Part shown: in pieces, positions 63,327 through 64,000 of the stretch
Layout of the letters: each line of letters begins with the position of its first letter
How positions within the stretch are numbered: position 1 is the first letter of the stretch
DNA from: Candidatus Magasanikiibacteriota bacterium
GTDB lineage: Bacteria; Patescibacteriota; Patescibacteriia; Magasanikbacterales; GWA2-37-8
Length of the DNA stretch: 64,000 bases
Reading direction: 5' to 3'
Assembly: GCA_963840935.1 (NCBI GenBank)
Contig: CAWJAS010000001.1
Span: forward strand, 448,875 to 512,874
Translations under genes and position numbers: made by a program
Notes under the pieces: model-generated
Seen by the model: only the letters and a program-made list of their open reading frames with translations
What the model was told of the DNA's origin: nothing
The model's database searches: none

Positions 63327-63358
63327 ACACCCCGAGTAATTGGGGTGTTTTTGTTTTG
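63327..63358 (+). terminator. Rho-independent terminator (ACACCCC-loop-GGGGTGT followed by TTTTTGTTTT)
   Basis: Read directly from the sequence. Confidence 0.7.
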
Positions 63359-63590
63359 TGACCCGGTCCCGAAGGGATCCCTTTGGGACTGGGATTCGGC
63401 TTCGGCTAAAATTTTCTTCCGAAAATTTTGCCTAGCCACCTTCGCCAGTTGGCGAATCGCGGTTTGGCTCGCCCGCAAGCTCGCCAAACATCGCTCCGGC
63501 GTTCTCATCCCAACGCGAGCAAAGCAGTTTGCTCGCTTCCGGGTCAAACAAAAAATCCCTTTACAGGGATGTATTTGTTTTGTGACCCGG
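63350..63590 (-). repeat. tRNA-flank structured element, copy 3 (interior 63367-63573), bounded by 17-nt direct repeats TTTGTTTTGTGACCCGG (63350-63366 and 63574-63590) derived from the 3' end of tRNA-Lys
   Basis: Shares the AAATTTTC-TTCC-GAAAATTT hairpin and the CATCGCTCCGGCGTTCTC...GCGAGCAAA...TTTGCTCGC module with copy 2, with compensatory changes. Confidence 0.6.
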
Positions 63591-63655
63591 CTGGGATTCG
63601 AACCCAGGACCTCTTCCTTAAAAGGGAATTGCTCTACCAGCTGAGCTACCAGGCC
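63583..63655 (-). tRNA. tRNA-Lys (anticodon UUU)
   Basis: Manual cloverleaf fold: acceptor GGCCUGG/CCGGGUC (two G-U pairs), D-arm GCTC/GAGC, anticodon loop CUUUUAA, T-arm CTGGG/CCCAG. 73 nt. Confidence 0.8.
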
Positions 63656-63782
63656 TTATGTAGTTCTATTATTATAAAATTTTTTTGAATGCTAATGTCG
63701 TATTTATTAATTGTATGACCGGTAGCGAAGCTGGAAGCTGCCGTGCCCCGCACAGTGAGCCGATAGGCGAACTGTTGCTGGG

Positions 63783-63799
63783 GAGCTACCAGGCCTTAT
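63783..63799 (-). repeat. 17-nt duplicate of the tRNA-Lys 5' end (GAGCTACCAGGCCTTAT on +) lying about 125 nt upstream of the gene on the tRNA strand
   Basis: Exact match to 63643-63659. Confidence 0.55.
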
Positions 63800-64000
63800 A
63801 ATAAAAAATAGACAATTTACAGGGAAAATGATACACTATATGCAGAAAAAAATCAAGGGGGAGAAAAAATGGTGTATAAATCATTTATTTTTGAATTATG
63901 TTGGATAAAAAGTTTTTTGCTAAAATTAGGTCAATTTTATTAAATTACTCCAAAAAAAGACGAGAAATAATTAAAATTTCCGGCGATGCCCAACAGCTTT

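Follow-up and report, generated by a model that had tools for sequence, protein, structure and literature searches.

The stretch of DNA analysed here, hereafter the window, covers 64,000 nucleotides (nt) of a genome of Candidatus Magasanikiibacteriota bacterium (contig CAWJAS010000001.1, positions 448,875 to 512,874). It holds three transfer RNA (tRNA) genes, all on the minus strand and found with both ARAGORN and Rfam: tRNA-Pro(CGG) at 49120-49194, tRNA-Pro(GGG) at 49608-49682 and tRNA-Lys(UUU) at 63582-63655 (RF00005, 67.5 bits). Directly 3' of tRNA-Lys(UUU), on the minus strand, lies a 210-nt element whose modules are shared with a copy behind each of the two tRNA-Pro genes. An earlier note, written from the sequence alone, had described it as a third copy of one structured element with the same architecture. 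This is borne out by a covariance model, R1, which has 140 model positions and was seeded with 58 copies, the Lys copy not among them. Scanning the window with R1 gave exactly three credible matches, each on the tRNA strand (minus) and directly downstream of one tRNA: copy 1 behind tRNA-Pro(CGG) (48954-49099, 121.6 bits), copy 2 behind tRNA-Pro(GGG) (49389-49534, 131 bits) and copy 3 behind tRNA-Lys(UUU) (63380-63538, 91.5 bits, E=1.2e-23, all 140 model positions). The 16-mer core CATCGCTCCGGCGTTC is exact in all three copies and absent elsewhere in the 64 kb (three matches against 0.32 expected), and every module that the note had named was located where it placed it.

Could this resemblance be due to chance, to low-complexity sequence or to an assembly artefact, with nothing shared beyond an A/T-rich hairpin? 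As R1 detects the Lys copy at E=1.2e-23 without having it in its seed, the similarity among the copies is not a matter of low complexity. The fold of the Lys region is likewise far from that of shuffled sequence (z=-6.2), and at least 114 independent loci from different assemblies carry the element. The score and the independent loci together refute this explanation, whose probability is negligible.

Read on the tRNA strand, the host gene ends with what we call the proximal copy T1, that is, tRNA-Lys positions 57-73 (63583-63599). A terminator-like hairpin, terminator T1, then stands between tRNA and element (ATCCCT-GTAA-AGGGAT followed by a U-run, 63555-63570). Next comes segment a (TTTTTGTTTGACCCGG, 63539-63554), antisense to the acceptor 3' strand and trailer, which pairs with 63350-63366 in the minimum free energy (MFE) fold; it complements the acceptor 3' strand GACCCGG, the tRNA-Lys's own 5' strand being GGCCTGG. 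The M1 hairpin GCGAGCAAA-CTGC-TTTGCTCGC (63515-63536), evident in the sequence and in R1, has covariation in all nine of its helix pairs in a family alignment, A1. Segment b, TGGGAT(GA) (63505-63512), is the antisense of two parts of the distal copy, its T-stem 3' strand and its T-loop, and pairs with them in the MFE fold; the helix so formed (helix 2) shows covariation with the local tRNA in A1. Next is the invariant core GAACGCCGGAGCGATGT, located by pattern scans at 63488-63504 (the 16-mer at 63489-63504), whose GAAC is the complement of tRNA positions 53-56.

The conserved domain occupies 63398-63487, as delimited by the R1 alignment and covariation. Its first hairpin after the core, M3 (63463-63487), was placed by the R1 alignment. 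The domain includes CCGCGA..GGCGGTG with a Lys-specific 16-nt hairpin insertion at 63441-63456, the helix P5 (GCTAGGC paired with AGCCGAAGCC), the module GCCTAGCCACC (63430-63440) and the A/U hairpin M6, AAAATTTTC-TTCC-GAAAATTTT (63408-63429). The distal copy follows in two parts. The first, GAATCCCAG (63389-63397), corresponds to tRNA positions 57-65 and pairs with segment b; the second, which we call T2 (63350-63366), is CCGGGTCA+CAAAACAAA, comprising acceptor 3' strand, discriminator and trailer, and pairs with segment a. Between them sits a Lys-specific extra hairpin, TCCCAAAGGGATCCCTTCGGGA (63367-63388), seen both as an inverted repeat and in the MFE fold. The element is closed by terminator T2 (63325-63350), a diverged duplicate of terminator T1 within a 25-nt repeat at 92% identity.

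The 17-nt repeat TTTGTTTTGTGACCCGG that bounds the Lys copy (63350-63366 and 63574-63590; as a direct repeat family, 25 nt at 92% identity) matches the 3' end of tRNA-Lys(UUU) and not that of tRNA-Pro, as the earlier note had reported. The proximal repeat overlaps the tRNA-Lys 3' end, its sense strand reading CCGGGTCA and then the trailer CAAAACAAA, and the match of repeat to local tRNA 3' end holds at each of the three sites. The modules said to be common with copy 2, namely the A/T hairpin, GCCTAGCCACC, the core and the GCGAGCAAA/TTTGCTCGC hairpin, were all located, as was the degenerate T-arm CTGGGATTCGGCTTCGGCT (63389-63407). However, the label of flanking repeat fits only in part. The repeats are real, but because the distal copy pairs with the internal antisense segments, the distal repeat is the 3' strand of an acceptor/T-stem-like helix, and thus an integral paired part of an element that lies 3' of the tRNA on the minus strand. 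The MFE fold gives just such a helix, closed by the distal copy, with the acceptor-like part extending beyond the discriminator.

Two further proposals of the note fared less well. A 17-nt copy of the tRNA-Lys 5' end does lie at 63783-63799 (matching 63643-63659), forming with a unique 123-nt insert the segment 63660-63799 on the minus strand, and the promoter-like site of the present tRNA-Lys falls inside that insert (63668-63695). Such 5' duplicates are unique local rearrangements and do not belong to any repeated element. An active or recent process at the Lys copy is made unlikely by its two private hairpin insertions, an M3 sequence that differs from that of the Pro copies, and its terminators. 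Since the latter are diverged duplicates of each other, the Lys copy looks old rather than recent.

Copies beyond the window were collected with the 20-nt core pattern ACATCGCTCCGGCGTTCNNNTCC in GTDB species genomes, each seen as an 8-kb genome piece, and it is to these listed loci that the counts below refer; taxon names are those of the database records. Because the loci were chosen by an exact core pattern, the apparent conservation of the core is inflated. The search returned at least 114 stretches from different assemblies, essentially all Patescibacteria by record title, among them Magasanik-, Uhr-, Kuenen-, Komeili-, Kaiser-, Adler-, Ryan-, Yanofsky-, Nomura-, Azam- and Moranbacteria as well as unnamed metagenome-assembled genomes. 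In 90 loci a tRNA lies on the same strand 15-141 nt upstream, and these tRNAs represent 16 amino-acid identities and 34 anticodons, with a 17th identity (Phe) appearing in a wider census of tRNAs at the listed loci. Three more loci have the element behind a transfer-messenger RNA (tmRNA) gene (L114, 4263-4877; L026, 7531-8000; L031, 7639-8000). At L114, the distal copy is followed by a second terminator, segment a and half M1. Overall, 102 of 197 tRNAs have a core within 200 nt downstream, in loci selected for holding the element; the figures for tRNA-Met and tRNA-Thr are 0/8 and 0/6.

The position of the element relative to its tRNA is highly regular. It is co-oriented with the tRNA and directly behind it, and an exact second occurrence of the tRNA's final 12 nt was seen in 58/90 loci, or in 65/90 when one mismatch is allowed. 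Exact identity between tRNA and distal copy has a median of 19 nt, starts at T-loop position 57 and reaches just 0-4 nt past the tRNA end in 51 of those 58 loci, and core and distal end lie 86-96 nt apart in 60/65. In sum, Patescibacteria (the candidate phyla radiation, CPR) have a large family of small, folded and non-coding elements that follow tRNA and tmRNA genes, and the earlier suggestion that different tRNAs are targeted with the structure preserved extends to many tRNAs in many genomes.

Family members measure 130-210 nt, lie 3' of the tRNA on the same strand and terminate in positions 57-73 of that tRNA, copied exactly. Along this strand, tRNA positions 1-73 are followed by an optional hairpin or terminator, segment a, the M1 hairpin and segment b, and then by GAAC with a conserved multi-helix domain of ~95 nt, the exact copy of tRNA 57-73(76) and a terminator. 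Segment a, present in many copies, is antisense to the acceptor 3' strand; segment b is antisense to the T-stem 3' strand plus T-loop positions 57-60 and leads into the invariant GAAC, the complement of G53-C56. Within the ~95-nt domain the order is invariant GAACGCCGGAGCGAUGU, variable hairpin M3, invariant ACCGCGAGGCGGUG, and helix P5 enclosing hairpin M6. As modelled, the whole is an acceptor/T-stem-like helix in which the T-loop is replaced by the conserved domain. A terminator-like hairpin separates tRNA from element in roughly a third of copies (by eye). A conserved GAACGAAGTGA(GG) motif, often in the loop of a small hairpin, was also seen by eye between tRNA end and segment a in about a quarter of copies (for example in the window at 49100-49117 and at L013, L016, L042 and L106), and it occurs inside the variant domain of L104, L110 and L060.

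The predicted structure is strongly supported by covariation. RNAalifold predicts 35 pairs, of which 26 show compensatory changes. In A1, 93% of cells are paired, compared with 71% in shuffles (0/500 reach 93%) and 34-47% with slid partners, and the covariation score is 0.526 against 0.167 in shuffles. Within the domain helices, G.U outnumbers A.C by 25:5, so the structured strand is the tRNA strand, as RNA or as single-stranded DNA.

Segment a is more variable in its presence. Helix a forms in 33/64 MFE folds and is absent in about half of copies. A 7-mer resembling segment a lies downstream of 42/104 occupied tRNAs compared with 12/106 without a core (controls 9 and 8), which assigns segment a to the element and not to ordinary tRNA trailers. 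At 13/14 positions where the tRNA has a G.U or mismatch, segment a carries the base that makes a Watson-Crick pair with the 3' strand; for instance, the G3.U70 of tRNA-Ala is replaced by A-U. This rule makes both a whole-tRNA duplication and an aminoacylatable mimic unlikely, and the former was rejected on these grounds as an origin.

These properties bear on the main rival explanation, a functional non-coding RNA family built on a tRNA-like scaffold and expressed by read-through from the tRNA promoter. Either RNase Z, cutting at the upstream tRNA, or RNase P, acting on helix a, would generate the 5' end, the 3' end would be matured as in a tRNA, the domain replacing the T-loop would do the work (e.g., protein or RNA binding), and gene conversion would keep the copies alike. 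The compensatory changes and the G.U excess on the tRNA strand fit this proposal, as do the constant co-orientation directly behind the tRNA, the terminator after the distal copy, a core that is invariant across CPR classes and an apparent persistence of orthologous copies (by eye). The evidence from the 3' end is mixed: by eye, the distal copy retains CCA at ~6 of ~11 loci with a gene-encoded CCA and has lost it at ~5. A CCA-adding enzyme encoded in the window suits an RNA; none of the three tRNA genes there encodes CCA. However, such a helix has no need of identity to the neighbouring tRNA, a terminator-like hairpin often intervenes between tRNA and element, and helix a is missing from about half of the copies. 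The A-U pair in place of the Ala G3.U70 argues against aminoacylation, and the dozens of copies per lineage, many of them decayed, truncated or in tandem, with patchy occupancy, also weigh against it. Taken together, we regard a functional RNA as the leading alternative, somewhat less probable than the reading favoured below.

Interiors are more alike between different tRNAs of one genome, where the median identity is 0.74 and several pairs reach 0.89-1.00, than between genomes at the same tRNA, where it is 0.59. Gene conversion alone could account for such homogenisation, which therefore does not separate a mobile element from an RNA. In a syntenic cluster of Arg(TCG), Gly(GCC), Pro(TGG) and Gly(TCC) tRNAs, the element stands behind different tRNAs in different genomes, with patchy occupancy. 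At several loci a second, tandem copy is cut short at its 3' side, the breakpoint varying from case to case, and decayed and orphan copies are also common among the listed loci.

Several tRNAs that seem empty carry other domain families of the same architecture. One such second family starts with TCGAAAGCGAG, has contiguous antisense segments a and b and is without M1 (L012, L014, L021, L038); at L012 (~4420-4800) a member of each family, this one and the main one, follows a single tRNA-Tyr in tandem. Other variants were seen at L009, L015, L036, L041, L100, L104 and L110. What is conserved across the domain families is the architecture, and it is by architecture that the wider superfamily is defined.

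The arrangement of repeats recalls known integration at tRNA genes. In tRNA-gene (tDNA) islands, the boundaries are direct repeats as they are here, consisting of a regenerated tRNA and a displaced 3' fragment (PMC4383910). As with islands and prophages of tyrosine integrases, tRNA and tmRNA genes are the targets, the gene would be split in the T-loop with its 3' end restored by the element, and the regenerated gene and displaced fragment are direct repeats whose end coincides with that of the tRNA. Williams, in 2002, is said to have named the T-loop as an integration sublocation in tRNA genes. Unlike such islands, the element is only 130-210 nt long, has no open reading frame (ORF) and no integrase gene, carries an internal antisense copy of the attachment (att) site and has a covarying interior, and one family uses many tRNA identities. 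The earlier note had proposed integrase-mediated recombination. The extent of the repeat, from T-loop to tRNA 3' end, is the signature of integration at tRNA genes and agrees with this, while the lack of a linked integrase or other protein and the base-pairing of the repeats do not. The note's observation is thus confirmed and its classical integrase interpretation partly supported.

A classical reading would make the copies deletion remnants of an integrase-encoding island or prophage, like cis-mobilizable elements (CIMEs), with the modules as arm regions beside attL and attR. The regenerated tRNA with its displaced T-loop-to-3'-end fragment is indeed the island signature (PMC4383910). However, independent deletions would not yield the same 140-nt unit at more than 100 loci with a fixed 86-96 nt from core to distal end, no long version with an integrase was present at any listed locus, and the interior is a covarying folded unit. 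Collections of mobile elements were also without a counterpart: a scan of IMG/VR with the 16-mer core gave 40 matches, all attributable to chance and none confirmed by the covariance model, and blastn found no match among INPHARED phages or PLSDB plasmids. The missing integrase and the constant ~140-nt fold together indicate that the element is not a random deletion remnant, and this origin is very improbable.

The reading we favour, with a probability of roughly 0.4, is that of an integrative element without a protein of its own, which would use a folded att site to recombine at the T-loop centre. This reading takes as observed the anatomy, strand, structural conservation, distribution, homogenisation, patchy occupancy and tandem or truncated copies, and to these it would add recombination, a single-stranded intermediate and an enzyme. 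Site-specific recombination would bring a non-autonomous element into the tDNA, with the dyad of TTC|GAA, the T-loop palindrome, as the point of entry; the proximal copy would regenerate the tRNA and the distal copy would be the displaced original fragment, as in tDNA islands. The att sequence would be offered as a duplex inside a folded single strand. Specifically, a circle of the form T - linker - rc(T) - domain, in which T is tRNA 57-73 and rc(T), its reverse complement, corresponds to segments a and b, could form a dumbbell. Its stem would reproduce, as a duplex, the final 17-20 bp of the tRNA gene and would end at the TTC|GAA dyad. Single-strand exchange between this folded strand and the tDNA would then yield the order T1 - linker - rc(T) - domain - T2, with a recombinase supplied in trans acting on the stem, by analogy with integron attC and CTXphi attP(+). 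Once copies are in place, gene conversion may homogenise them, direct repeats may give tandem duplications, and deletion may bring decay.

Several features would be explained by this scheme. Single-strand exchange would account for the identity of T1 and T2, the Watson-Crick antisense segment and the fixed orientation. The complementarity of segment a fits because a duplex mimic of a DNA target needs it, and the duplex does end at the TTC|GAA dyad. The terminator-like hairpin between tRNA and element is consistent with an element that brings its own tRNA terminator. The tandem, truncated, decayed and orphan copies, the several domain families of one architecture, the uneven occupancy of syntenic tRNAs and the likeness of interiors within genomes also look more like repeated DNA than like a single gene.

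Recombination through a folded single strand has been described for integron attC sites (PMC3458562, PMC5027507) and for CTXphi attP(+), where the folded strand is recombined by XerCD (PMC3089051). The likeness is that inverted arms around a structured spacer of ~90 nt pair to rebuild the target-site duplex. Here, segments a and b pair with the distal copy, with Watson-Crick complementarity at the 13/14 positions noted above. By analogy, the integrated form would be rc(site) - spacer - site, with strand-specific exchange and the enzyme acting in trans. There are also differences. The target is the tRNA T-loop and 3' end in place of attI or dif, the recombinase of the element is putative, and its spacer is strongly conserved in sequence whereas that of attC is variable. 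Neither the attC consensus RYYYAAC/GTTRRRY nor a dif-like XerC/XerD arm is present at the junctions, which read ..ATTCGAAC and GTTCGAA with C, not R, at position 4, and inspection of the element junctions revealed no dif-like sequence.

A number of observations weigh against a protein-less integrative element. No recombinase gene lies near any copy in the listed loci or the window, look-ups gave no circular or excised form and no pair of filled and empty alleles from close relatives, and the element is absent from the viral, phage and plasmid collections named above. The 17-mer core and ACCGCGAGGCGGTG are invariant across CPR classes, in a sample selected on the 20-nt core pattern; this invariance, the G.U excess in the domain helices (25:5) and the apparently orthologous copies that persist across species (by eye) are more typical of a functional RNA. 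For the element to move to a new tRNA, T, a and b would all have to change in concert, with M1, itself conserved, lying between a and b, and gene conversion can by itself explain the homogenisation within genomes.

Whichever function applies, the element may belong to a class that we did not find described. It would be either a mobile element that consists of a dumbbell-forming single strand of ~150-200 nt with a stem copied from the final 17-20 bp of a tRNA or tmRNA gene, has no protein of its own, relies on a host recombinase and could potentially enter any tDNA at its T-loop dyad, or, if the same fold works as RNA, a tRNA-scaffolded non-coding RNA superfamily with several domain families. 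This joint claim is put forward with reserve, the odds being somewhat against it. The core sequence was not found in the papers searched, and in a scan with Rfam 15 only tRNA (and tmRNA in the loci) reached the gathering score, with nothing credible at E<=10 over the element.

One locus invites yet another explanation. At L023 (~2170-2400, plus strand), positions 1-55 of a tRNA-Ser(GGA) are followed by 35 unrelated nt, segment b, the core, the domain and then positions 57-73, without a proximal 3' end. The element could here be an intervening sequence, a T-loop intron or part of a split tRNA, with the distal 57-73 as the true 3' exon, and splicing in silico does restore the tRNA. However, of the 26 listed loci that have no tRNA upstream, L023 alone shows an interrupted T-loop, 90 loci have a complete tRNA ahead of the element, and Rfam gave no group I or group II intron signal for the element. 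As a general account, an intron or split tRNA is therefore highly improbable. Patescibacteria tRNA genes are known to host group I introns in the anticodon loop, at position 35/36 (PMC13011429). These are likewise structured RNA insertions at tRNA genes of the same phylum, but they are ribozymes that interrupt the gene, unlike an element that sits behind an intact tRNA and has no group I signal.

Other structured elements offer partial parallels. In the tRNA-like domain of tmRNA, YrlA, mascRNA, viral tRNA-like structures and engineered tRNA scaffolds, acceptor- and T-stem-like helices also close a larger RNA with a possible tRNA-type 3' end. Unlike these, the T-loop itself is replaced here, the D and anticodon arms give way to one hairpin, the helix copies the adjacent tRNA, and there are apparently many copies per genome and no Rfam match. 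Similarly, miniature inverted-repeat transposable elements (MITEs) and repetitive extragenic palindromes or bacterial interspersed mosaic elements (REP/BIME) are small, non-coding, multi-copy, structured and homogenised within genomes. The present element differs in being confined strictly to tDNA 3' ends, in one orientation, with no transposase family linked. It also lacks the terminal inverted repeats and fixed short target-site duplication of a MITE, its repeat being the tRNA 3' end with a variable length of 17-78 nt.

The wider meaning of these findings lies in the small size of the genomes concerned. CPR genomes are tiny, yet 102 of the 197 sampled tRNA genes, at loci preselected for at least one copy, carry a structured appendage of ~140 nt with an invariant 17-nt core across classes, and this appendage is absent from Rfam and from the literature searched. 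If mobile, the appendage would target tDNA through a folded att site without any protein of its own, extending the attC/CTX principle to tRNA genes, and it would account for the tRNA-fragment clutter of CPR genomes. If an RNA, it would constitute a new and widespread non-coding RNA superfamily on a natural tRNA scaffold. Either outcome affects tRNA annotation and, through pseudo att sites, island detection, as well as how repeats at tDNA are understood in metagenome-assembled genomes. The covariance model R1 can be used for a census.

No protein partner emerged from the genes around the copies. Neighbours in the window are housekeeping genes: RmlD/RmlB, a cupin-type GPI, a PilT-like ATPase, the CCA-adding enzyme, DnaG, RpoD, MurG and a MiaB-like enzyme. 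No integrase is among them, and no recombinase family is enriched in the listed loci (at least 114). The CCA-adding enzyme gene, with PolyA_pol head, RNA-binding and HD domains, lies at 51040-52476 on the plus strand, 1.4 kb from the Pro tRNAs. An exact-protein look-up of a neighbouring gene returned no record. A metagenome scan with the MiaB-like neighbour found relatives of at most 46% identity, with no synteny and no element, so a comparison of filled and empty alleles was impossible.

Two ORF families were considered as partners and rejected. The first, of ~130 amino acids (aa), which by eye we take to be YraN/UPF0102-like, forms the largest cluster. It occurs at just 11 of the at least 114 listed loci and follows the conserved Arg/Gly/Pro tRNA cluster. 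The second comprises ORFs of ~220 aa with an N-terminal helix-turn-helix (HTH) and a LAGLIDADG-like LYxGEGxK motif (Pfam detects the HTH alone). They adjoin tRNA genes at some loci (L005, 5457-6149; L064, 873-1541; L103, 1331-1999 and 5197-5856; L104, 423-1082) and show no consistent linkage to the element; the L005 ORF is located between a tRNA-Glu and an orphan element.

The tRNA-Pro(GGG) locus has further peculiarities. The gene is flanked by a 28-nt inverted repeat of leader and trailer (49589-49616 and 49676-49703, 89% complementary) that extends its acceptor stem into a long helix and resembles a processing stem. Upstream, in the region 49683-49838, lies a stub of tRNA-Pro(GGG) positions 1-37 (49801-49838), after which come a relic M1-like hairpin and GAGAAC (49705-49779; covariance model score 14.7 bits, E=4e-4 in a 1.2-kb search). 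Stub and relic look like the remains of an older unit of tRNA plus element. A 78-nt direct repeat at 99% identity (49330-49407 and 49549-49626) contains the 3' half of tRNA-Pro(GGG), positions 41-73, and, beyond a spacer of 21 nt, the beginning of the next 3' end, which gives the copy-2 locus four full or partial tRNA 3' ends. Elsewhere in the window, away from any tRNA, the covariance model produced one weak match on the plus strand (6171-6237, 14.1 bits, E=0.033), which is probably noise.

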